Virus record (IMG/VR): IMGVR_UViG_3300035703_000077 | Span: 4,390-68,389 of that record | Direction: 5' to 3' (one strand) | DNA: 64,000 nt | Origin: a virus | Part shown: piece by piece, positions 4,008-63,174 of the stretch | Layout of the letters: the number at the start of each line of letters is the position of its first letter | Numbering within the stretch: position 1 is the stretch's first letter | The notes under the pieces: generated by a model | Seen by the model: the letters and a program-made list of their open reading frames with translations, nothing else | What the model was told of the DNA's origin: nothing | Database searches by the model: none | Translations under genes and position numbers: made by a program

Positions 4008-4876
4008 TTTAATTTATCTCCAATTTCCTTTGCTAATTCATATGATAACATTAACATAGATACATTGTCATCCGACACAACTTTATTTACTTTAATATCT
4101 TCCATTATTTTAATGGTTTCATTTAGCTTAATATTAGTTGTTTTGTCACAAATTTGCTCATTAAGTTTTTTTAACTTTAAAATTGAATTTTTCAATTCAG
4201 TTTTGTAATATTCAACAAAACCAGTAGTATTACTTATATTATTTATATACTGCTCTAATAATTTTTTTTGATTCTTGCTTAATTTCGTAGTGTATTTTTT
4301 ATTAAAATTTTCAACCAAAATTTTATAAGTAAGTAATCTTAAATCTTTATCTTGGTTTGAGAAAGTTTTTAATATTGCTGACTCTTCAATTTTATCTTTA
4401 TTTTTTGTTTGAGTATTTGAAATGTGCTCAATGAGAGTAACTTTAGCATCAAACTTATCTTTAATATTGAATGAATTTGTATTATTTGATTCAAACAATT
4501 TATAAATAGATGCCAATTGACGATAATTAGTTAATGGATACGATAAAAACTTATCTAAATCAAATGATTCTTTAATAGTCTTAATAAGTTCATACTTTTC
4601 TCTAATTAATTTTTTATCATTTATTTTCTTTCGCTCTTCACATACTACATCTATAAACTTTTCAGCACTATTTTCTGTTTTGTATTTTTCTTTGAGTAAC
4701 AATTCGTATAATCGCAATTCCTTAGATAATTCAGTTTTTTTATTAAAGAATTCGTGTAAAATACGCTTGGATTTACCAACGGTATCCCCATTTATAACCT
4801 CCAAAGTTATTTGTCTAACTAATAATTCAAATAAAATACCTGTATTTTTGAATTTTGAATGTTTTAATTTTTTCAT
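4004..4876 (-). CDS. Hypothetical head-assembly protein between portal and protease
   Basis: KHSKFKNTGILFELLVRQIT N-terminus; ATG at 4876 preferred over TTG at 4888. Confidence 0.7.
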   Translation of the reverse strand: MKKLKHSKFKNTGILFELLVRQITLEVINGDTVGKSKRILHEFFNKKTELSKELRLYELLLKEKYKTENSAEKFIDVVCEERKKINDKKLIREKYELIKTIKESFDLDKFLSYPLTNYRQLASIYKLFESNNTNSFNIKDKFDAKVTLIEHISNTQTKNKDKIEESAILKTFSNQDKDLRLLTYKILVENFNKKYTTKLSKNQKKLLEQYINNISNTTGFVEYYKTELKNSILKLKKLNEQICDKTTNIKLNETIKIMEDIKVNKVVSDDNVSMLMLSYELAKEIGDKLK

Positions 4877-18772: not shown

Positions 18773-18801
18773 AATATAATAAAATTATTTGAAATTTTCA
18801 A
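18773..18801 (-). promoter_or_regulatory. Sigma70-type promoter TTGAAA-N17-TATATT
   Basis: -35 at 18796-18801, -10 at 18773-18778, 17-nt spacer; matches three other copies. Confidence 0.55.
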
Positions 18802-19876
18802 ATTCTTTTTTTGATCTGTGTAAAGATGATCCTATTACTTGGTGCATATCATAGTACTTATAATCTGCTAATCTACCACCAAATATGAAATTTGTTTCAT
18901 TATTCATCAAATATTTATACTTATTGTATTTTTGATTATTGGTTTGATTATTTATAGGATAGTAAGGTTCACCATTTAAAGTTGGATATTCTTTTGTTAT
19001 AATTGTATGCGATTGATTACCAAATTCAAAATGTTTGTGTTCAATTATACGTGTATATGGTATTTCATATTCGGTATAGTTTATACCAGCAGTTCCTTGA
19101 AAATCCATAATATCTAATGTTTCAGTTTTAAAGTCCAAACTTCTATAATCTAACTTTCCAAATTTGTAATCATAAAATCTATCAATTGGACCTGTATATA
19201 CTATTTTATTTGCAATACTATCAAAATAATCTCTATTTGAAAAATAATCTTGATTTAATCTAACCTCAATTCCATCTAAAAGTTTTTCAAATATTTGAGT
19301 ATATCCGCCTATTGGTATTCCTTCATATCTATCAAAATAATAACTATCATCAAAATTGAATCTAATTGGTATTCGTTTTATTATAGATGTTGGTAATTCC
19401 TTTGGGTCACATCCCCATTGCTTTTTGGTATATCCCCTTATAAAAATGTTATAAAGATCTTCGCCAATATTAGATAAACACCAATCTTCTAAATTTGTAG
19501 GTTTTTCAATGTGAATTTTATTGTCATCAAATAGTTTAATAGCGTCACTTGGAGTTTTGACATCATAAATTTGATACAATGTTAGTAAATTAATTGGAAA
19601 TGAATAAATATTACCTTTGTAATTTACCTTAGGTCTATACTTGAAATTATTAAATTCAACTAAGCAATTGACGTATTCCCAAATTTCTTTATTGGATGTG
19701 TGAAATATATGAGGACCATATTTATGAACGTTAATACCCTCTACGTTTTCTGTATAACAATTTCCACCTATATGTGACCTTTTATCAATCACTAAAACGG
19801 ATTTTCCGTAGTTTTTCATTTCCCGTGCAAATACGGAACCAAATAAACCACTACCAACAATTAAATAATCATACAT
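18785..19876 (-). CDS. glf: UDP-galactopyranose mutase
   Basis: GSGLFG FAD motif, HIGGNCY, HKYGPHIFHT, YTKKQWG, EPYYP, GRLADYKYYDMHQ. Confidence 0.95.
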   Translation of the reverse strand: MYDYLIVGSGLFGSVFAREMKNYGKSVLVIDKRSHIGGNCYTENVEGINVHKYGPHIFHTSNKEIWEYVNCLVEFNNFKYRPKVNYKGNIYSFPINLLTLYQIYDVKTPSDAIKLFDDNKIHIEKPTNLEDWCLSNIGEDLYNIFIRGYTKKQWGCDPKELPTSIIKRIPIRFNFDDSYYFDRYEGIPIGGYTQIFEKLLDGIEVRLNQDYFSNRDYFDSIANKIVYTGPIDRFYDYKFGKLDYRSLDFKTETLDIMDFQGTAGINYTEYEIPYTRIIEHKHFEFGNQSHTIITKEYPTLNGEPYYPINNQTNNQKYNKYKYLMNNETNFIFGGRLADYKYYDMHQVIGSSLHRSKKEFENFK

Positions 19877-19877
19877 T

Positions 19878-21062
19878 TTAGTTTGTTAATACATTAATAA
19901 AATTTAACCACATTTTACCAACTCTGTCTATATTAAAATTGCTTAAAATATAATCAGTTCCTCTATTTCTAATATTTTGTTTTAATGTTGGGTTTGCTTC
20001 TAAATAATAAATTGCATCTAGTATATTATTTATATTGTTTTTAAATTTACCATCAGGATCTTTAGTTAATTTCTCACGCTGTATATCATCTACATTTACA
20101 TAACTTGGAAAGTTTATCCAAAAACAATAGTCACGGAAATATTCAGGTAGGGCACCCAATTGATATGTTATAGGTATTGCACCCAATGCGATTGCTTCAG
20201 CAACTACACACGAGAATGTATCTTTGTGGACATCTTGATATGGTGTATATAGCGGATATAAAAAGTATTCGCTTTCGGCAATATGAGAAAATAGTGTATG
20301 CTTATCAACCCCATTATGTGAGTTAAAGAAATGATCAGTATGTTGATGTGTGGCTAATAAATAATCAAATGAGTGAAATTCTAAATCAGGATAATTTAAA
20401 TGACGCAACGCTTCAACTGCCACATCACCACCACGTGCCCAAGCTGCGTGGAAAACAAATTTATGTGGTTTTTTCTTTATATTTTTTGCTAAAACTTTAT
20501 TAATCATCTCATCCATAACAGGATTTGGTATTAATGTAGAAAATACTTTACTTTGGTATGAATTTTTGGCACTTTCTATTGTAGATTGGTTCATATTCTG
20601 CTCCCAATTTGAAATATTGACAAACCCAAGGGTTAAATTATTTTCTTTAGAATAATTTATTAATTCCCCAATTCCGTATATCCATTGCATATGACACCAA
20701 TAAATAAGTGACTTTTTGACTTTAATTGGTAATTTATCATAATGGTGAAACCATAATGAACTAACTAAAATATCAAACTCTAAATCATTAATATTCTCAA
20801 AATCTGTAAATGTGTATGTAACTCCATTTACTTTTGTACCTGGTACAAAATCTATACCACTATTTTTATAGTCCTGTTCTAATTGTGGTTCTAATCTATC
20901 AAATGCAAAAACAACATCGTGTCCTTGTTTTGCCAAATATTCAGCAACCAAAATGGAACTACCATCAGTACCTGATCCTCCACCATTACCATATCTAATA
21001 GTGTCACCTGTTAAATAATTACTTCTTCTACTATTTCCTATTACAATAAAAGCTATTCTCAT
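19878..21062 (-). CDS. GT4-like (GT-B) glycosyltransferase
   Basis: GGSGT N-terminal loop, EYLAKQGHDV, DTFSCVVAEAIALGAIPI. Confidence 0.8.
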   Translation of the reverse strand: MRIAFIVIGNSRRSNYLTGDTIRYGNGGGSGTDGSSILVAEYLAKQGHDVVFAFDRLEPQLEQDYKNSGIDFVPGTKVNGVTYTFTDFENINDLEFDILVSSLWFHHYDKLPIKVKKSLIYWCHMQWIYGIGELINYSKENNLTLGFVNISNWEQNMNQSTIESAKNSYQSKVFSTLIPNPVMDEMINKVLAKNIKKKPHKFVFHAAWARGGDVAVEALRHLNYPDLEFHSFDYLLATHQHTDHFFNSHNGVDKHTLFSHIAESEYFLYPLYTPYQDVHKDTFSCVVAEAIALGAIPITYQLGALPEYFRDYCFWINFPSYVNVDDIQREKLTKDPDGKFKNNINNILDAIYYLEANPTLKQNIRNRGTDYILSNFNIDRVGKMWLNFINVLTN

Positions 21063-21064
21063 AT

Positions 21065-22318
21065 TTATAGTATTTTTTCATAGGGTTCGCTCCAACCAAG
21101 TTTTTCATCATACAAATACATTAAAATTTTGTATGGTTCTTGTTGACTAGAAAATCTAGCCAAATAATAATTTTCAATCAAATTAACTTGGTTTGGGTCA
21201 GTATTTATATTAAAATCTTTTCTATACAACTCTACATCATTTTTTGATAAAACACCCAAGGTTAAAAATTGTTTATTTTTAAAATCCAATTTAGAAAAAA
21301 ATCCTAAATCCCACGTAATTCCAATTTCGTGTTTTTTTGATATAAAACCACTTTCCCAATCTCCTGTATATGGTGGTTCATTTACTTTTAAAGTATAATC
21401 GTGTATTCTACATTTTTTGAAATCAAATCCACCATAAACTTCATAATCACGCAATGTTCTAACATCACCAAGACCATAAATCCCCATATCTATACCATTA
21501 TCTTCAGTGCCAAATAATTGTCTAGTTTTTTTACGGGCAAATATGTCACGCTCCCCACTTGTTTTTTTGGTTTCACTTTGGCTTCCGTGATCTTCCCAAT
21601 GTTTTGGTCTGTAATTTCGTGTATACTCGTGCCACATTACCATTCTATACGGTGAGTACATATCCCACCCGTGTGTAAATGCACGAACTGATAAAGTGGT
21701 TTCTTCAGTATATCCACCAAAATATATATCCGGATCATACGGAACTTCTTTTATAAAATAACCCCAAGTAAAGTAAAAGTGACCACTTATAGTTCTAGCT
21801 TTTATAACACGATTTCTTTGTTTATGATCTTGAATATACCAAGGCATACTCATTAAAAGTTTGTCAGAACTAAATTCGTATTGAGACATTAAAGATGGTA
21901 TCAAATCCCACGTAGGTCTATCTTTTGTTGGGTCAAACGGAGTGCAATACGTTGTTATTATTGGTTTTGGGGATTCTTCTAATGCCTGTTTAAAATCTTC
22001 TAATACAATTTCATCCCATCCCATTACAAATCTATGGTGTGAGTCAATTTGAAGTGTATATTCCTCATCATCGTACAATGAATTGGTCACTGATCGTGCC
22101 CACCCAAGTCCTTCCGACTTTGAATAGTGATATTTAGCTATTCTAAATCGTGGGTCATTATCGTATCTATTTATATCTTCGGTCTCGTCGTATTGCCAAC
22201 AAATTCCAAATGTTAAATTTTCTGGATTCTTGGCACGCTCCAACATATCTTCTATTGTTGGTATTAATTGTGGGTCTCTATAACTTGCGATTTGTACAAA
22301 TATTTTATCTTTCTTCAT
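21065..22318 (-). CDS. GT60-like polypeptide/hydroxyproline GlcNAc transferase (Skp1 GlcNAc-T family)
   Basis: IFVQIASYRDP, LQIDSHHRF (DSH), VPYDP..YF...EE, RAFTHGWD, MWHEY. Confidence 0.82.
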   Translation of the reverse strand: MKKDKIFVQIASYRDPQLIPTIEDMLERAKNPENLTFGICWQYDETEDINRYDNDPRFRIAKYHYSKSEGLGWARSVTNSLYDDEEYTLQIDSHHRFVMGWDEIVLEDFKQALEESPKPIITTYCTPFDPTKDRPTWDLIPSLMSQYEFSSDKLLMSMPWYIQDHKQRNRVIKARTISGHFYFTWGYFIKEVPYDPDIYFGGYTEETTLSVRAFTHGWDMYSPYRMVMWHEYTRNYRPKHWEDHGSQSETKKTSGERDIFARKKTRQLFGTEDNGIDMGIYGLGDVRTLRDYEVYGGFDFKKCRIHDYTLKVNEPPYTGDWESGFISKKHEIGITWDLGFFSKLDFKNKQFLTLGVLSKNDVELYRKDFNINTDPNQVNLIENYYLARFSSQQEPYKILMYLYDEKLGWSEPYEKIL

Positions 22319-29700: not shown

Positions 29701-29929
29701 ACTCTTTTAAAAACCAACTAACCTCTCTTACCAATTCAGGTGTCATTTCAGTTTTTGCGTGTGCAATGTCTCCGCCAATATACAAAATACTATTTTTTGG
29801 TCTATTATCTAGATCTTGTAAAAATTTGTTAAATACTAATCTATATTCGTTATGTCTCTTTAAATTTCTTATGTGCAAATCAGCAATATGATACACATAA
29901 TCTATTGTTGTGTTATTTAATATTTTCAT
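26750..29929 (-). CDS. Fused Mre11/SbcD nuclease and Rad50/SbcC ATPase (T4 gp47+gp46 equivalent)
   Basis: HIADLH, GGD, GNHD, GDIH; Walker A APNAQGKSS, coiled coil with CSIC hook, SSGME signature, IIDEG, ISH. Confidence 0.92.
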   Translation of the reverse strand: MKILNNTTIDYVYHIADLHIRNLKRHNEYRLVFNKFLQDLDNRPKNSILYIGGDIAHAKTEMTPELVREVSWFLKECADRLPTLVIAGNHDCNLLNPSRLDVLSPIVESLNHSNLFYLKDTGVYNVGNLTISVFSIFDNKENWIHGNDIEGDHKIVFFHGPVYSSKTDVGYTVSSKSFTADIFDGFHIGMFGDIHRRQVLQEYDAILNKPILVYCGSLLQQGQGELLENHGYLLWDIKNRNFTEHNIYNEYGYLTLDIIDGQIPQWVYDEVGVKLPKRIRFRLKIQNTNNIELQSCIKELKSMFDEVEVSVTRMDTLNSLKSSSSIDSSLIGNVRDVVFQNKLIGDYLKDSYGLNQDALDKIYDLNVQFNNKLNSNESYLDRIVWIPKTFEFSNMFSYGDGNKIHFNKATGLIGLFAPNAQGKSSVWDALSFCIFDKCSRAFKAQHIMNNQRDNFYCKFHFQINNTDYYVERYAKKTKTGVRVDVNFWREYDGNVESLNGEHRRDTNDKIEYYIGKYDDFILTTLSLQGNNSLFIDKSQSERKDILSQFIGIDVFDKLYDLVLENNKKTNALLERYENIDYSDRIKDIDVELVENKQLQTDLQTKLDTFKLDRQVNIDQLADLNKQIVPLNVESFNIDKLLKDKQNKETETDDVKTKLNETELSIINFEKLETELRLKKDTDYSTIEIEYNKLNELNALSASLHTELDKLVYKLNSNEDTMAHLNEHEYNPDCSICVKNSKSVIDKKETIQTTIEEIKAHIDVKMSELRPIEDSIDKLSYVKVTWNEYNDLLNELDTAKNNLIHLNQSKSELNLLLHTLGSTLETIERNIGNFYKNENTIKSNAIIETQIGEVTLKIKEQDKSIDKLQQEMLKAQTKNNELKAELKSIEKNILEYEELVQTAKLYEYYLDSISRNGVPYNLISKAIPIIEQEINNILTQIVDFTIELEMDGKTINAYIVYSDQKWPLEMSSGMERFVGGLAIRIALINLCNLPRPNFLIIDEGLGTLDGENLQSIFLMFSYLKTQFDFIILISHLDIARDFVDSIMEIRKKGEFSYINF

Positions 29930-30864
29930 ATTCCTTTTAATTTTACACGGATCATATCATCCCATTGAGTTGCTTTTGTGCTTCTAATTATTTCTTGCGT
30001 CTTAATAAAGCCAAGGTCACTTGGGTCTTTTTCAGTTGGGATGATATTAGTAACTTGTATGCCGTTTTTAGTAAAATAATTTACATATTTATTAGCTTGG
30101 TCTTGGGCATCATTATCTAGCATTATTTTAATTTTTTTTACCTTATTCAAAAAAATAGTTTCCATCAATCGCTTTGATATAAACTTACCAAATAGCGGTA
30201 TGGCGTTTCGTCTAATAGCGATTGCATCAAATACACCTTCACATAATGTAATTTCATATTTCCAATTTATTTGATTTTCAAATCCTATGACGTTTTTGGA
30301 TATAGGTGGGTTTTTATACTTGAAATTAGTTTCATTATATGCACGTGCCATAAAATAATTTAACTGATTATCTTTATCATATGATGGTATTATAATTCTA
30401 TTTTCATATATACCATTTTCACAATATCCTATGTTATATTTGACTATAATATCATCATTTATACCCCTACTTAACAAATAACGTTTGACATAGTCAAAGT
30501 TAGGATCTATTGAAATTTTCTTTTCGTTTAGTTGTTTAAATTCATTTGGTAGTTTTAATTTAACTACCTCTTCTGTTTCAGTTTCTGTACTATTATAATA
30601 ACTAGAACCATATATGGTATTGATAGTACTTATCTTTGAATGATCGCAATTTAACTTACGCAAAAGAAACCCAATAGTATTACCTTTTGAGTTGCATACC
30701 CAACAATGAAATTTTTGACTATTTAAATTTACTTGTAGTTTCTTTTTGTGATGATGACAAAACGGGCAATGATATGCCATTTCATCATTTGGATATGTGG
30801 TGCCTACACCCAATAGAGAATCCAAAATATTAACTACTATTAACTTATCTTTGTGTGAAATCAT
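29926..30864 (-). CDS. DNA primase (Zn finger + TOPRIM)
   Basis: CPFC...CWVC zinc finger, RIIIP, CEGVFDA, LDND, KDPSDLG; likely start MISHKDK at 30864. Confidence 0.9.
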   Translation of the reverse strand: MISHKDKLIVVNILDSLLGVGTTYPNDEMAYHCPFCHHHKKKLQVNLNSQKFHCWVCNSKGNTIGFLLRKLNCDHSKISTINTIYGSSYYNSTETETEEVVKLKLPNEFKQLNEKKISIDPNFDYVKRYLLSRGINDDIIVKYNIGYCENGIYENRIIIPSYDKDNQLNYFMARAYNETNFKYKNPPISKNVIGFENQINWKYEITLCEGVFDAIAIRRNAIPLFGKFISKRLMETIFLNKVKKIKIMLDNDAQDQANKYVNYFTKNGIQVTNIIPTEKDPSDLGFIKTQEIIRSTKATQWDDMIRVKLKGI

Positions 30865-30871
30865 ACAACAC

Positions 30872-30900
30872 AATATAACATAAATTTGTTATTTTGTCAA
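30872..30900 (-). promoter_or_regulatory. Sigma70-type promoter TTGACA-N17-TATATT
   Basis: Perfect -35 at 30895-30900, -10 at 30872-30877, 17-nt spacer, directly upstream of primase. Confidence 0.75.
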
Positions 30901-31311
30901 AAAAATTGTTGTATCTTTATGATAAAACTTACCCAAAATTGTATCATTCCAATATAAATCAGGATGTTCTAAGACCTCATACTTAAACAAATATTTAGTT
31001 TCCAAATATGTGAGTTGTTTTTTACTATATGCAAATTCTAAAATGTATCTAGTAAATTCTGTTTGTTTACCTTCTTTTATCATTTGCTTAATTAGTAAGT
31101 TAGAACCATAATAATTTAACCAATCAGATTCTTTTACAATTTTTCTTTTTCTTTTATATCCTTTTAGCGGGGGTAGTGTTTTTTTGGAGTTTAATAATTT
31201 TTTACCTATGTACTTTTTACCACTATTATGTTCTAATAAATATACAAAACCAATAGCACTTTCAGGTATGTCTGAAAGTGCTTTTATTTCAAGATTATTA
31301 TAATTCCACAT
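30889..31311 (-). CDS. GIY-YIG-like nuclease
   Basis: GFVYLL...KKYIGKK...ESDWLNYYGS...E. Confidence 0.7.
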   Translation of the reverse strand: MWNYNNLEIKALSDIPESAIGFVYLLEHNSGKKYIGKKLLNSKKTLPPLKGYKRKRKIVKESDWLNYYGSNLLIKQMIKEGKQTEFTRYILEFAYSKKQLTYLETKYLFKYEVLEHPDLYWNDTILGKFYHKDTTIFLTK

Positions 31312-58761: not shown

Positions 58762-59481
58762 TTATTGTAAAATATAACCTTCTTTTTCAATAAAGTGTAA
58801 TGCATCTTTATATTTTATAAATTTTGAATCATTACCATCCATTGATTTAATCATAACTCTGTCATTTCTGCCGTATTTCCTATCATTCACAACTTGCGTT
58901 GAATATATCCTACGCTTATCGGTTATTAAAATTCCATTCAAGTGGTCAATCTCGTGTTGTGCAGTAACACATTCTAGCAAGCCCGTGTCTGACATAACAT
59001 CATTAAAATTTTTATATTCTTCTTTATCTGCACTAAAAACCAACTCACCCAAATTATCAGTTTTAACTGTGATTGATTTAGCCCTGATTGTAGATTTTGG
59101 TTTTCGTAATGTATTTGGAATTGATAAACAACCCTCCATATAAACAACAGAGTCTTGGGAATATTCAGTAATAACGGGATTAACCAAAATCAAAGGATCT
59201 TTGACATTTATAATGCATACTCTTTTATCAATTCCAATTTGATTTGCAGATAATCCAACTCCACCATATAGTTTTAAATAAACAGCAAGTAGAGCCGAAA
59301 TTCTATTTAATTCATCATCAGTTATAGATGAGCTTTCAATTTTATTAGATAAAATACCAACATCTTTTATAATTGGCTTTATATCATCTTTTTGTATATT
59401 TGCCAAATGTTCAAGAGACAGCCATTCTGGCTTCGGTGGCTTTTCTAAATGTATTGTATCCGACCAAGTATTATCTTCCAT
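58762..59481 (-). CDS. def: Peptide deformylase
   Basis: GVGLSANQIG, EGCLS, QHEIDHLNG motifs. Confidence 0.93.
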   Translation of the reverse strand: MEDNTWSDTIHLEKPPKPEWLSLEHLANIQKDDIKPIIKDVGILSNKIESSSITDDELNRISALLAVYLKLYGGVGLSANQIGIDKRVCIINVKDPLILVNPVITEYSQDSVVYMEGCLSIPNTLRKPKSTIRAKSITVKTDNLGELVFSADKEEYKNFNDVMSDTGLLECVTAQHEIDHLNGILITDKRRIYSTQVVNDRKYGRNDRVMIKSMDGNDSKFIKYKDALHFIEKEGYILQ

Positions 59482-59504: not shown

Positions 59505-60575
59505 TTAAAATAGTTTATGCGGTTTTGCTTCATTCATTCCCGCGGATGTAATAACAACGTAATCTGTGTTTCCTTGGTATGTGAGTATATCACTTGCCCC
59601 GACATAGGATAATGCAGATCGTAAACCATCTTGTAATTTCATTATGGTGTATTTTACACCACCTTTAAAAGGAATAACGGTTGATTCACCTTCTACATTT
59701 CTACTTTCAAGTCCGTGTGTTGTTTTAGTCTCCAAGGATGCCGAACCTCTATATCGTTTATATAGTTGATTACCCTTTTCAATAATAGAACCAGGAGTTT
59801 CAACTGTTCCAGCTAATAAAGAACCCAACATAACGGTATCCGCCCCAACTGCAATTGCCTTTGCAATATCACCAGATGTTCTAATACCACCGTCCGCAAT
59901 TATAGGAACCAACCCATAAACGAATTCAAGTTCAGCTTGAGCCTTTACACAATCTTCAATTGAAGTTACAGATGGGATACCCATACCAGTTTCAATGCGA
60001 GTAGTGCACAATGAACCACCACCGATACCAACTCTAACGGCATCCGCACCCCATTTAATTAAATCCGAAGTTCCACTATAAGTTGCAACTGAACCAGCAA
60101 TGACATCAACTGAATGATGTCTCTTAACCCAACTGATCATATCCTTTACATTTTTATGATGACCGTGTGCAACATCAATTAAAATTATATTACACCCAGC
60201 CTTTACCAATTCTATAACTCGGTTACGTTCATTGTCACCAACACCAACCGCAGCCATAATTGGAATTTCTAAATCACCCCAAACTGAATTTAATTGTTCT
60301 TTGTTTTGACTAATATATGATTTTAAGTTTTGGATAATTTTGGATTGGTCATCAACTGCCATAAATCTATGAATACACCCAACACCACCCATTGATAAAA
60401 GCCGGACTGCCATATCATATTCACAAACCGTGTCCATCGGTGCAGCGACAAACGGACTAACAATATCAAAGTTTTTAGTTAACTTTGATTTTAAACTAAT
60501 TTCTTTACGAGAACCGACTTCACTATATTTTGGAATTAGTTGGATATCATCGTAGGTGTAAGCTATTTTTCTCAT
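59505..60575 (-). CDS. IMP dehydrogenase / GMP reductase family (no CBS domain)
   Basis: TYDDIQLIP, APMDTV, IDVAHGH, GIGGGSLCTT (catalytic Cys), IADGGI, YRGSAS. Confidence 0.9.
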   Translation of the reverse strand: MRKIAYTYDDIQLIPKYSEVGSRKEISLKSKLTKNFDIVSPFVAAPMDTVCEYDMAVRLLSMGGVGCIHRFMAVDDQSKIIQNLKSYISQNKEQLNSVWGDLEIPIMAAVGVGDNERNRVIELVKAGCNIILIDVAHGHHKNVKDMISWVKRHHSVDVIAGSVATYSGTSDLIKWGADAVRVGIGGGSLCTTRIETGMGIPSVTSIEDCVKAQAELEFVYGLVPIIADGGIRTSGDIAKAIAVGADTVMLGSLLAGTVETPGSIIEKGNQLYKRYRGSASLETKTTHGLESRNVEGESTVIPFKGGVKYTIMKLQDGLRSALSYVGASDILTYQGNTDYVVITSAGMNEAKPHKLF

Positions 60576-60634: not shown

Positions 60635-61405
60635 TTAGTTTGAAAGCGGTAACTTAATTGTAGCGTGTGATTTATAGTCCCTAAGTATAAAATCAGATGG
60701 TTTTAAACTATTTATTAAACTATCAATATCCAACGGAACTTCAGGTATAGCGTGCATCATATTAAGCAACTCTTCATTAAATTCCACTTTAGGCAACTCA
60801 AACGATTCTCTATCTAATTGCTCCTTTATTAGTTCAATATGATTACTGTATATGTGAGTATCTCCACCATTGAATATCAATTCATCAGGAACCATATTAA
60901 CATATCTACCAATAAACATAAGTAATAATCCATAGGAGGCTAAATTAAAAGGTAATCCCAATCCAACATCAGTGCTTCGCATATTGAACATTAGAGAGAT
61001 TGCTCGGTTTGGTATGTTTTCTTTATTCATTAAGTCAATAGTTGGTGGAACAAAGTGTAATCTACCAAGTGTTGTTTCATAATATCTCACGCGTTCTTCT
61101 ATACTCAACTCTCTCGTATAAACTTGAAAACTATAGTGACAAGGTGGAAGCACCATATCTGAAAGGTCATCTACTGCCCACGCATTTACAATTAACCTAC
61201 GAGAGTCCGGATTTTCTTTTAATTGTTTAATTAAATCGGATATTTGATCAACATTACCATTCCAGTTACGCCACTGTGCTCCATAAATTGGTCCTAACTT
61301 ACCCCACTTTTGGGAAAACTCATCATCGGTTTTGATTTTGTTGATAAATTCTTCTTTTGTATAAGGTCTACCACTTTCGTGTAAATCGTTTTTATTTGCT
61401 TTCAT
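60635..61405 (-). CDS. thyA: Thymidylate synthase, C-terminal part
   Basis: LGPIYGAQWR, DSRR, LPPCH, RSTDVGLGLPFN, DTHIYSNH; ATG at 61405 overlaps the endonuclease stop. Confidence 0.9.
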   Translation of the reverse strand: MKANKNDLHESGRPYTKEEFINKIKTDDEFSQKWGKLGPIYGAQWRNWNGNVDQISDLIKQLKENPDSRRLIVNAWAVDDLSDMVLPPCHYSFQVYTRELSIEERVRYYETTLGRLHFVPPTIDLMNKENIPNRAISLMFNMRSTDVGLGLPFNLASYGLLLMFIGRYVNMVPDELIFNGGDTHIYSNHIELIKEQLDRESFELPKVEFNEELLNMMHAIPEVPLDIDSLINSLKPSDFILRDYKSHATIKLPLSN

Positions 61406-62108
61406 TTTGTATGTTTTTATATTTCCATTTATACCCAAATGCCGTTTTATTTCTTCCTGTGAGACAGTGTCTTATGGTACCGACATTTATATTTAACTCA
61501 TTAGCAGCATCAATTGCTGATTTAAATTCACAAATTATATCACCAACGAGGTTGAGCTGGTAGATAGGTTTTTTATTTCGTTCATGTATCTTGTCTAAAA
61601 ACGAATAATCCGTTTTCCTATTTTTAATGGATTCTCGCCAACTGTCCCAATCTGTATTTTGCTTTGCTTTCTTAGATCTATCTTTAAAATCCACTTTGCT
61701 AATTCTTTCTCTCAATACCTTCTTTCGTTCTTCTTCAGTTGCAGTTTCTAACCACAAATTAAGGTGTTTACTGCGAGAAGGGTCGTGTCTTCTAGCGTCT
61801 GAATAATCTATAAATTTTGAGGTATCCCCACCATCTCCCCCTTCTTCTATCAGATTAGCCCACTCCTTAGATTCAACTATATTATACAGTTTGCTTAATT
61901 GTATTCCCATCTCTATTAACTTTTGAATATCAGTTGTTTCAAGAACAATTTCGGTTTTAATATCACAACTTTGTAAGTTATGTTTTTTTATATGACGTTT
62001 CCAAATCTTACCACTTCCAGAGTATAAATGAGGGTCTTTAGTTGTTTTACCAAGATACTTTAAACCCAAAGGACTCGTTTTGATGTATAAAAAATATTTT
62101 GTTTCCAT
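61392..62108 (-). mobile_element. Free-standing GIY-YIG homing endonuclease with NUMOD1/IENR1 tail, inserted in thyA
   Basis: FLYIK...KYLGKT...YSGSG; ANL; C-terminal KPIYQLNLVG...FKSAIDAANEL...TAFGYKWKY. Confidence 0.85.
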
Positions 62109-62120
62109 ATTTGTTTTTAA

Positions 62121-62128
62121 TATAAATA
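62121..62128 (-). promoter_or_regulatory. TATTTATA putative late promoter of the endonuclease (representative of about 18 copies)
   Basis: Same octamer lies just upstream of many structural-gene starts. Confidence 0.55.
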
Positions 62129-62146
62129 TGGTGATTTGTATAAAAA

Positions 62147-62467
62147 CTATAAAGTTTTTCTATCTTTTTCTATTTTGTTACATTCATCTAAATAAAAACG
62201 ATATGCATCCCCATCCCAAATGCGACATTCATTCTCAACCAAATACTTGATGTTTGTATCTCCTCTTAAGAACCATAGTAACTCTGTTACAATTGTTTTA
62301 AATGGCATCTTTTTGGTAGTAAGTAGGGGGAACCCATCTGACATCTTATGTCTAATTTGTCTACCGAATACAGATAGAGTACCAGTACCGGTCCTGTCTG
62401 ATTTAGATATCCCCTGGTAAAGAATATCTTTAACTAATTGTTTATATTGTTCGTCTAAATTATTCAT
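62147..62467 (-). CDS. thyA: Thymidylate synthase, N-terminal part
   Basis: [32 protein letters not shown]; ends in TAG. Confidence 0.9.
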
Positions 62468-62473
62468 ATTATA

Positions 62474-62704
62474 TTAATTATCTTCTATTGTAACATTGTG
62501 GTCTTCTATTAATGTGTATAATGTATCTCTTATATTTTCGCACATACCTATTTCATCGTTATTTAAAGTATCTTCATTATACTTTATTTTATTTCTTAAA
62601 TAAATGTCCAACTCCCTAATAATAGATTTGTAACTATTACCATTAAGGCAATCATTAAATTCTGTTTGTTCTTGAGGTAAGTTAAATTCTAATTTTGCTT
62701 TCAT
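62474..62704 (-). CDS. Hypothetical protein
   Basis: MKAKLEFNLPQEQTEF N-terminus; start overlaps the upstream stop. Confidence 0.65.
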   Translation of the reverse strand: MKAKLEFNLPQEQTEFNDCLNGNSYKSIIRELDIYLRNKIKYNEDTLNNDEIGMCENIRDTLYTLIEDHNVTIEDN

Positions 62705-63174
62705 CTATTTAATATTTTTATTATTTTTTCTTTAATTCCAGTTTGTTTAATTCCTTCTAAATATCTAGGAGTCCATACAAAGTTATCTTTTAAAAAGTAC
62801 CTCATATCAAGATCATCAACTACCACCCAACTATCGCCATCAGTTAAGTTTTCGGTAACCCACATATCTATCTCACCAGCTCGCTGTCGTTCAAGTAACG
62901 AACTTGGTGGTAAATTAGGCATATAGGTAACAGATATAGGAGATGTTTTAATTCCTCGTTCGGTGTATAATTCTTGTAACTGATCTAATGTAGCCTTATA
63001 TCTCCAATCGGACGATACAACAATTTCACAATTAGTTTCATCTATAATTTGGTTTAAGACCTTAATAGCTTTTTTATCAAAATCGTCAAACTTTGCGTTT
63101 TTCTTAAATCTACTTCCCCAATTATCAGGAAGACAAATGACACCATCGTGATCTAAAAAAAGTATCTTACGCAT
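62701..63174 (-). CDS. HAD-superfamily phosphatase (HAD_SAK-like)
   Basis: LFLDHDGVI, VVSSDWR, R..EI..W, VVVDD. Confidence 0.8.
   Translation of the reverse strand: MRKILFLDHDGVICLPDNWGSRFKKNAKFDDFDKKAIKVLNQIIDETNCEIVVSSDWRYKATLDQLQELYTERGIKTSPISVTYMPNLPPSSLLERQRAGEIDMWVTENLTDGDSWVVVDDLDMRYFLKDNFVWTPRYLEGIKQTGIKEKIIKILNR

Follow-up and report, generated by a model that had tools for sequence, protein, structure and literature searches.

Can a gene for thymidylate synthase (TS) that is interrupted by a homing endonuclease gene still supply a working enzyme, and by what route would it do so? The question is raised by the thyA locus of a 64,000-nucleotide (nt) stretch of DNA from a T4-like phage, uncultured and of freshwater origin, referred to here as the window, which spans positions 4,390 to 68,389 of the IMG/VR virus record IMGVR_UViG_3300035703_000077. 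All parts of the locus lie on the minus strand. The upstream fragment, thyA-N (62467..62147), encodes the N-terminal part of TS in 106 amino acids (aa) and ends at its own TAG stop codon (62149..62147). It is followed by a 38-nt spacer (62146..62109), which is part of the cassette and holds TATTTATA at 62128..62121, and by the open reading frame (ORF) of a homing endonuclease of 238 aa with a TAA stop (62108..61392). The downstream fragment, thyA-C (61405..60635), encodes the C-terminal part of TS in 256 aa and opens with its own ATG, and its start shares 14 nt with the end of the endonuclease (61392..61405; ATGAAAGCAAATAA). The first-pass annotation of this locus had described thyA-N with DRTG, ELLWF and IWD motifs stopping at 62147, a 38-nt gap with a TATTTATA motif before the endonuclease ATG, and an endonuclease stop overlapping a thyA-C ATG at 61405 (PPCH, RSTD, HIY). 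ORF and Pfam analysis bears out these coordinates and motifs, the size of the gap is exact, and the motif is kept in relatives of the cassette. We consider it likely that a mobile endonuclease cassette splits thyA and that the enzyme is rebuilt from two chains without RNA or protein splicing. Such a cassette would bring a stop codon, the 38-nt leader, a GIY-YIG-type homing endonuclease gene that is free-standing, and the codon at which translation of the downstream fragment starts; thyA would be expressed as ThyA-N (106 aa) and ThyA-C (256 aa), with splicing at neither the RNA nor the protein level.

Both fragments match the TS family PF00303 in Pfam, thyA-N with an E-value of 1.2e-31 over profile positions 1-90 of 266 and thyA-C with an E-value of 2e-57 over positions 76-264 of 266, and in alignments the two together are collinear with intact phage ThyA. 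They are the only two PF00303 matches in the 68,389-base virus record, the completeness of which is estimated at 38%. The split arrangement is not an assembly artefact, because record 11 of X3, a run belonging to another study, is a 1043-nt contig that covers 61341-62383 with 2 differing letters and contains the C head, the entire endonuclease, the spacer and part of N, and because both cassette junctions are bridged by contigs of run X2. In the contigs aligned to the locus, no joint bypasses the endonuclease.

The residues expected of a functional TS are divided between the two fragments. The DRTG arginine lies in thyA-N, as do the glutamate of ELLWF and the tryptophan of IWD, and thyA-C holds the GPIYG tyrosine, DSRR, the PPCH cysteine, RSTD, FN and HIY; we take the DRTG arginine, the ELLWF glutamate, the PPCH cysteine, the arginine pair of DSRR, RSxD and H.Y to have catalytic or substrate-binding roles. 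D24, R25, E62, W65 and W84 of thyA-N are invariant in 38/38 split-type N fragments, and Y41, R69, R70, C89, H90, R143, S144, D146, N154, H184 and Y186 of thyA-C are invariant in 25 sequences. Residues 6-86 of thyA-N align without gaps to residues 2-82 of Escherichia coli TS, residues 4-92 align to residues 2-90 of L. casei TS, and thyA-C residues 19-99 align to L. casei residues 124-208. From these alignments, the break sits in an insert that is present in long-form TS and absent from E. coli TS; it falls after IWDGDAY, in agreement with the earlier placement of the break in the variable insert after IWD. Intact homologues read through this position. ThyA of Flavobacterium phage immuto (423 aa) is intact and continuous across it, as is P0123, an intact 359-aa ThyA that shares a 90% cluster with a 105-aa split fragment and reads ...YLKECDKMKGSKKDLHETGRP... 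at the break. Compared with P0123, the N tail of the split form is approximately 7 residues longer and the C head is native sequence. The AlphaFold2 model of P0123, with a predicted local distance difference test score (pLDDT) of 86.6 and a predicted template modelling score of 0.87, has its best structural matches in TS from L. casei, S. aureus and E. faecalis (E ~1e-32) and contains a helix at 85-99, a loop at 100-114 (in which block 101-110 has a mean pLDDT of 60) and helices at 115-124 and 126-132. Mapped onto this model, the cassette site is a surface loop of low order that connects two helices within the small domain of L. casei type.

IMG/VR was searched with the endonuclease, which returned 31 loci, 10 of which carry an endonuclease of at least 66% identity. 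The order N, endonuclease, C was found by tblastn in 9 of these 10, and the tenth begins inside the endonuclease and is followed by thyA-C; the remaining 21 have one domain in common with the endonuclease and no thyA nearby. A search of IMG/VR with thyA-N gave 413 relatives, of which the best 80 were kept. Among the fetched loci, a sample biased by the choice of queries, there are 115 distinct thyA 5' ends: 76 are whole, 11 run off the contig end, 10 are split at the position seen in the window (site 1), 7 and one variant are split at a second site, 8 at a third, and 2 fall into none of these classes. Site-1 N fragments are 105-106 aa long and end in ...AYQAYLKECEKLKKDxxNx, and the endonuclease in site-1 loci measures 238-242 aa. 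The 14-nt overlap between endonuclease and thyA-C recurs in all seven loci with an intact endonuclease of this family, and thyA-C starts at the same codon in eight loci (ATG in seven, GTG in L090), with a head of the form MKANKNDLHESGRP.T.EEFINKIKT. In a collection of 5.8 billion proteins, thyA-N has 5682 matches at E<=1e-10 among proteins 58-186 aa in length; of the best 120 matching clusters, 107 are 100-109 aa long, at least 76 have a YL.EC.K tail and one is the protein of the window itself.

Three kinds of locus indicate that the split thyA persists while endonucleases arrive, degenerate and disappear. In L083 (4001-5959), the same thyA site is occupied by a different, canonical GIY-YIG endonuclease (PHROG 314, 270 aa), which has a related C-terminal DNA-binding domain and a 25-nt overlap with thyA-C. 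In L093 (4001-4712), the endonuclease is frameshifted after approximately residue 155 and thyA-N is intact, with thyA-C recorded as a tblastn match to residue 200, near the contig end. In L042 and L071, thyA is split at the window's site without any endonuclease, and the stop of N and the start of C overlap as ATGA. The latter two loci (L071:4001-6152 and L042:4001-6142) also possess a second interruption, in thyA-C after RSV, where a group I intron harbours a GIY-YIG ORF, complete in L071 (231 aa) but shortened at its N-terminus in L042 (149 aa), and where the downstream exon has no start codon of its own.

This second interruption bears on the possibility that the first one is also a self-splicing intron, of group I or another kind, whose core overlaps the endonuclease ORF and whose removal would give a single-chain ThyA from a spliced mRNA. 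Such a reading draws on T4 td, which carries the I-TevI intron (Table 1 of PMC2988022), on the true introns of L071 and L042, and on the report in the same article that the 3' end of I-TevI reaches into the intron core. At site 1, however, non-coding room is limited to 38 nt before the endonuclease ORF, and 0 nt remain after it, as the first-pass annotation had anticipated in noting little room for a group I core. When 2.5 kb and 1.25 kb spanning the interruption were compared with Rfam, the scans gave no Intron_gpI (RF00028) match at E<=10 and only chance-level snoRNA and miRNA matches, whereas a size-matched 1.3-kb scan of the second interruption in L071 gave Intron_gpI at 32.9 bits (E 2.7e-6). 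At the gathering threshold, Rfam returned nothing in 17 loci and missed the true L071 intron among them, and the intron test was therefore made by E-value-threshold scans with this positive control. The downstream piece has an ATG or GTG at the same codon in 8/8 loci, in contrast to the true intron of L071 and L042, whose 3' exon lacks a start codon, and the two halves in L042 and L071 overlap by ATGA with nothing between them, yet are conserved. A cryptic intron at site 1 is thus very unlikely. A 250-nt gap in L053 was also considered as an intron and rejected: it has no RNA family match, the ORF of 496 aa is continuous, and the extra sequence is an in-frame insert.

A single chain could also be restored at the protein level if split-intein halves at the ends of the fragments ligated the two chains by protein trans-splicing. 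The earlier remark that no intein motifs are visible holds, as the Pfam scan found no intein or Hint domain in either half. There is no space for split-intein halves, because intact homologues are continuous across the break, the C head is native and collinear with P0123, and the N tail adds only those few residues. To our knowledge, the ends of ThyA-N and ThyA-C are shorter than known split-intein halves require. Fractured genes that combine split inteins with a free-standing endonuclease are known from Dassa et al. 2009 (PMC2677866), a paper in which thymidylate synthase has 0 occurrences; the fractured genes have intein halves whereas thyA has none, its chains would stay separate, and trans-splicing here is extremely improbable.

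Selection was estimated from pairs of loci. The ratio of non-synonymous to synonymous substitution rates (dN/dS) is 0.06-0.18 for N (13/21 pairs computable, 8 saturated), 0.05-0.22 for the endonuclease (17/21 pairs) and 0.13-0.44 for C (21/21 pairs, variable inserts included). Selection after the split is measured only by the pair L042/L071, and perhaps also by the window and L011. In the endonuclease-less L042/L071 clade (support 100), dN/dS is 0.12 for N and 0.39 and 0.15 for the C exons. By these comparisons both thyA halves are under purifying selection. They bear on the alternative that thyA was killed by the insertion and that the halves are non-functional remnants taken along by a cassette that spreads selfishly, the phage using a host TS or a gene in the unsequenced 62% of its genome. 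Homing endonucleases are able to spread despite a cost, the record is only 38% complete, and some of the constraint may predate conversion of the alleles, all of which would fit such remnants. The pseudogene-like decay that had been named as evidence against a two-chain enzyme is nevertheless not seen, as both ORFs are open, with dN/dS below 1 in each half. The ORFs are likewise open, with invariant catalytic residues, in the 8 site-1 loci read end to end and in both endonuclease-less loci. The N fragment is open in L093 as well, where C is known only from its tblastn match. The part that decays or is lost is the endonuclease and not thyA, N fragments of 100-109 aa make up 107/120 of the top clusters, and the dN/dS of 0.12-0.39 comes from a clade whose divergence most parsimoniously postdates the split. 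Inactivation of thyA is accordingly unlikely.

TS is an obligate dimer in which the DSRR arginines reach into the active site of the partner subunit. The complex predicted for the N and C chains reached an ipSAE interface score of 0.92 in three runs, compared with 0.00 for the best control, a mark attained by 116/157 solved complexes and 2/215 mismatched pairs. The runs agree in at least 98% of contacts, with partner pLDDT of at least 89 and 262-276 contacts, and among the interface residues listed are 82-99 of N and 1-25 of C, corresponding to the helices on either side of the break. The prediction makes N and C compatible with the TS fold and is not proof of binding. The two chains would co-fold into the ordinary TS fold, and because TS is an obligate dimer the working enzyme would be an (N.C)2 heterotetramer with an active site assembled from residues of both chains. 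The heteromeric, two-chain ThyA proposed in the first-pass annotation is supported in this way by comparative evidence and by a compatible fold prediction. It could be asked whether only ThyA-C works, with some other activity and with ThyA-N dispensable, given that the nucleophile cysteine and most substrate-binding residues lie in ThyA-C. ThyA-N is, however, the most constrained of the three ORFs (dN/dS 0.06-0.18), its DRTG arginine and ELLWF glutamate are invariant in 38/38 split-type fragments, and the predicted N/C interface is extensive at 262-276 contacts, which makes a role for ThyA-C without its partner highly improbable.

In a ThyA tree of 56 rows, accounting for the split genes takes 5 state changes, at least 3 of which are forced by starred branches; the split gene of L090, for instance, is joined to the whole gene of L027 with support of 100, and that of L008 to the whole gene of L025 with support of 98. 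Monophyly of the 10 split genes was rejected by the approximately unbiased (AU) test (difference in log-likelihood 141.8, p-AU 0.0015) on a 24-row subset, for which the group and 14 unsplit rows were picked after the first tree. In the protein alignment, each split gene resembles a different unsplit gene away from the junction, whereas the junction sequence is common to all split genes. The same pattern is present in the DNA of L005 and L090, whose identity is 70-77% in the opening 240 columns of N, rises to 97-98% across the spacer and the ~80 nt of N that precede it, stays at 87-98% along the endonuclease, and is 88% in the initial ~60 nt of C, 80% in the following 60 nt and 53-83% farther on. 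This sharp block of identity around the cassette is an indirect signature of transfer between thyA alleles by homing with co-conversion of the flanks. The endonuclease would cut unsplit thyA alleles in co-infecting phages, and repair would copy the cassette along with some 80-120 nt on either side, amounting to intron-less homing.

The endonuclease comprises a GIY-YIG-like (SegE/I-TevI-like) N-domain, a linker and a C-terminal helix-turn-helix of NUMOD1/I-HmuI type. The C-terminus is recognized by Pfam (NUMOD1, E 2.1e-6; I-HmuI_NUMOD-like, E 1.7e-6). The N-domain has no Pfam match at E<=10, and so none to PF01541 or PF19835, no match by sequence to the PDB, and in NCBIfam only a sub-threshold match to TIGR01453 (24.9 bits against a cut-off of 56). 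When aligned by hhalign with two canonical GIY-YIG endonucleases, the C-terminal domain alone matched and the N-domain was not linked. The N-domain also gave a BLASTP E-value of only 0.41 against the window's own SegE-like ORF. Among relatives, L103 matches PF01541 at E 0.27, and residues 15-46 of the L005 homologue share 51% identity over 35 residues with the canonical GIY-YIG endonuclease of L069 (E 3e-4, BLASTP, 8-sequence database). By eye, the first ~100 residues contain Y-x10-YLG, then Y.GSG..W and ESKEWANL. Leads from the ESM Atlas are GIY-YIG/SegE clusters with feature scores of 0.94-0.96 and template modelling (TM) scores of 0.73-0.88. The AlphaFold2 model of the endonuclease has a mean pLDDT of 64. 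Its residues 3-87 match the I-TevI catalytic domain 1ln0_B (Z 6.9, root-mean-square deviation 2.9 A, 81 aligned), 1mk0 (Z 6.7), PD-T4-3 (Z 6.6-6.7) and the GIY-YIG domain of UvrC (Z 4.0-4.4), and residues 166-234 match the DNA-binding domains of I-HmuI (1u3e, Z 9.0) and I-TevI (1i3j, Z 5.5). With middling Z-scores and an N-domain pLDDT of 73-88, the model lends moderate support to a GIY-YIG fold. The enzyme is read as a divergent Seg/I-TevI-type endonuclease, which the fold and the DNA-binding module fit and the sequence profile does not. The SegE-like ORF mentioned above is a second free-standing endonuclease ORF of 140 aa (30889-31311, minus strand; Pfam SegE_GIY-YIG, E 1.3e-26) that adjoins the primase gene (29926-30873).

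The spacer between thyA-N and the endonuclease is itself conserved, measuring 38 nt in 7/8 loci that carry an endonuclease of this family; L085 is the exception at 42 nt, and the core CCATCACCATATTTATA is near-identical. The RNA of this region is predicted to form an 8-bp hairpin (62105..62131, minus strand) with arms CCAUAUUU and AAAUAUGG, in which the endonuclease AUG (62108..62106) lies within the 3' arm and TATTTATA spans the 5' arm and loop. In the window the hairpin has a minimum free energy of -5.5 kcal/mol (z -1.59). Its stem is the minimum free energy structure in 6/7 loci of this cassette type, and one position in an arm varies between A and G with pairing kept (U-A or U-G). In L083, whose GIY-YIG cassette is unrelated, the AUG is covered by a stronger hairpin (-15.8 kcal/mol, z -2.77). 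In T4, a late promoter within such a hairpin restricts translation of I-TevI, I-TevII, I-TevIII and segB, and the same is described for Aeh1 mobE (sections of PMC2988022). By analogy with I-TevI, segB and mobE, the leader hairpin may have a regulatory role, and expression of the endonuclease would be late or translationally gated through it; TATTTATA may act as a promoter. In a contig of run X5 with a depth of 2.6, a weak joint from 62118 to 62156 skips 37 nt of the cassette spacer, with a shorter side of 21 letters, and may represent a relative with a shorter leader or an assembly quirk.

Several points weigh against the proposal that an endonuclease cassette splits thyA into two cooperating chains. 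The start codon of thyA-C is assigned from conservation. The control intron of L071 scores 32.9, below the family gathering score of 50, and the gathering-threshold scan missed it; the Rfam model is insensitive to ORF-bearing introns, and a very degenerate ribozyme may lie beyond the reach of Rfam alone. The complex score may reflect memory of the many solved TS structures, and part of the low dN/dS between backgrounds may predate the conversion of each allele to the split form. A second TS (thyX or another thyA) may be encoded elsewhere in the phage, given the 38%-complete record. With energies of -5.5 to -6.1 kcal/mol and z between -0.8 and -2.2, the leader hairpin is weak, and the putative promoter motif is not enriched across the window: ACCATATTTATA with up to 2 mismatches has 48 matches against 36.2 +/- 6.7 expected, a number reached by 6/100 shuffles, and sigma-70-like sites in the window, at 13 against 16.4 expected, are not above chance.

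Two further positions in thyA are split in related loci. Site 2 lies just before MVLPPCH and is present in L018, L069/L078, L073 (4001-6357), L082, L126, L147 and L164, with a variant in L187. Its upstream fragment (214-231 aa) ends in ...DLPVTDYRTDDELYQDYLKDFEKK or ...TDYRTDDELYQDYLKDFEKK, and its endonuclease is a canonical GIY-YIG enzyme of 277-302 aa whose end overlaps the start of the downstream fragment. That fragment begins M..LTKEEFLEKLKTDRDFNNRYGRKHITEGK, and its head copies a native small-domain helix, with E-values against whole ThyAs of 1e-4 to 7e-9. At site 3, the break follows YGxGWRNW; this site is present in L116, L117 (659-2858), L118/L119, L120, L122, L129/L130, L160 and L174. 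There, the upstream tail GKSDDKLYEDYLKKVKEK is followed by an HNH endonuclease of 230-237 aa and by a downstream head, ..THEDGTPFTKEEFLQKLKTDKEFNDEFGNKG or ..FTKEEFLQKLKTDKEFNDEFGNKG, that is a copy of the native helix; L129/L130 possess two extra ORFs (142 and 90 aa) between endonuclease and downstream fragment. Each of the ten heads tested resembles the native helix located after site 1 (~105-136 of whole ThyAs), with E-values of 1e-4 to 8e-10, compared with a best of at least 1e-3 for shuffled heads. The upstream tails of sites 2 and 3 exhibit no significant likeness to native segments (best E 0.007-1.1 for the GDAYxxYL helix, against shuffled minima of 5e-4 to 0.04). The endonucleases of the three sites have DNA-binding modules in common and nuclease domains that are not. 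We tentatively propose, from these sequence comparisons, that the site-1 cassette is the source type and that it may have moved to at least two other thyA positions together with a copy of the site-1 helix (TQEEFINKIKTDDEFAKKWG), which would now serve as a portable clasp opposite a conserved short upstream tail and would make an otherwise lethal break tolerable; this reading is possible rather than probable. If true, it would explain the origin of 'reassembly tails' in genes-in-pieces. Downstream of the split thyA of L160 (5511-6191) lies a 226-aa ORF with an HNH-endonuclease-like start and a copy of the ThyA C-terminus at its end (...ENYQSHPKIVAPLSN), which may be another cassette carrying a spare gene end.

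The other genes of the window include those for a T4-like portal, prohead protease, terminase and gp25, and for a BACON-domain protein. The nearest named relatives are the Flavobacterium phages vB_FspM_immuto, and a DNA similarity search found no record among named phages covering at least 80% of the region. Directly downstream of thyA-C is a gene of the GMP reductase/IMPDH family (59505-60575, minus strand; PF00478, E 1.5e-103), a peptide deformylase gene (58762-59481, minus strand) also lies downstream, and a gene for a HAD-family phosphatase-like protein (62701-63174) lies upstream of thyA-N; the genes flanking the split thyA are auxiliary nucleotide-metabolism genes. A UDP-galactopyranose mutase gene (PF03275, E 7.8e-78) and a GlcNAc-type glycosyltransferase gene are situated among structural genes at 18785-22318 (minus strand).

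The first-pass annotation had cited as precedents nrdA of Aeromonas phage Aeh1, which is split by mobE and functions as a ribonucleotide reductase of two polypeptides, and T4 td with its spliced intron, and both are correctly described according to PMC3045599 and PMC2988022. Genes split by free-standing endonucleases comprise, according to PMC2988022 and PMC2677866, Aeh1 nrdA (mobE), the T4 topoisomerase gene 39/60 (mobA) and gene 43 of phage 25 (seg43(25)). The closest parallel is Aeh1 nrdA-a/mobE/nrdA-b, which like thyA here has a free-standing endonuclease in a nucleotide-metabolism gene of a T4-like phage, two separately translated pieces and neither an intron nor an intein. For mobE, a hairpin covering the translation start has been reported, and one is predicted here. 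The two differ in that Aeh1 has nrdA as host gene and an HNH endonuclease, whereas here the host gene is thyA and the endonuclease GIY-YIG-like; in that the Aeh1 break lies in a functionally critical region rather than a variable surface loop; and in that its ends are tails created by insertion, whereas those of thyA are mostly native helices. The thyA cassette, unlike that of the Aeh1 comparison, is present in many lineages and appears to have been transferred between alleles, and two-chain function is demonstrated for Aeh1 and predicted for thyA.

T4 td with I-TevI resembles the present locus in being a TS gene of a T4-like phage with a GIY-YIG nuclease and helix-turn-helix architecture, and in having a leader hairpin that may gate translation. 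However, T4 td is restored by RNA self-splicing, whereas here there is no detectable ribozyme, the downstream piece has its own start and the insertion site differs. Gene 43 of Aeromonas phage 25 likewise has a GIY-YIG seg-type endonuclease between the halves of an essential enzyme gene, and gene 43 of Aeromonas phage 44RR is split without an endonuclease by an untranslated sequence between the cistrons (IC-UTS), according to PMC2988022. The split that 44RR keeps without an endonuclease resembles L042 and L071, except that gene 43 encodes another enzyme and has an untranslated spacer between its halves, whereas the halves in L042 and L071 overlap by ATGA. Intron-less homing by free-standing endonucleases is also known from T4 SegB-SegG, whose genes sit between other genes. 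They share with the thyA cassette a free-standing GIY-YIG endonuclease inherited with flanking markers by co-conversion, but the endonuclease gene here lies inside coding sequence and supplies the stop and start codons that would make the split viable.

In the full-text literature searched, including PMC4837284, PMC3322345, PMC7344957, PMC8351571 and PMC5468394, with subscription journals and supplements outside the search, no description of an intron-less thyA split was found. The split thyA with a GIY-YIG-type endonuclease adds to the kind of genes-in-pieces known from Aeh1 nrdA/mobE, of which few cases (nrdA, gene 43 and topoisomerase) have been described, whereas split thyA is abundant in freshwater phages. 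Thymidylate synthase is among the best-studied enzymes, and its gene is a classic intron host in T4 td; at the present locus it meets the same broad endonuclease class, yet would survive as two chains without splicing. For annotation there is a warning in this, as pipelines label the 106-aa fragments 'thymidylate synthase' or 'partial', and a practical use may lie in natural split points for TS-based protein-fragment complementation. Loci in which the endonuclease is intact, decayed or lost, together with the three split positions in the gene, provide a natural series in which to study the tolerance of an essential enzyme to fragmentation and the way in which a free-standing endonuclease cassette may render its own insertion harmless.

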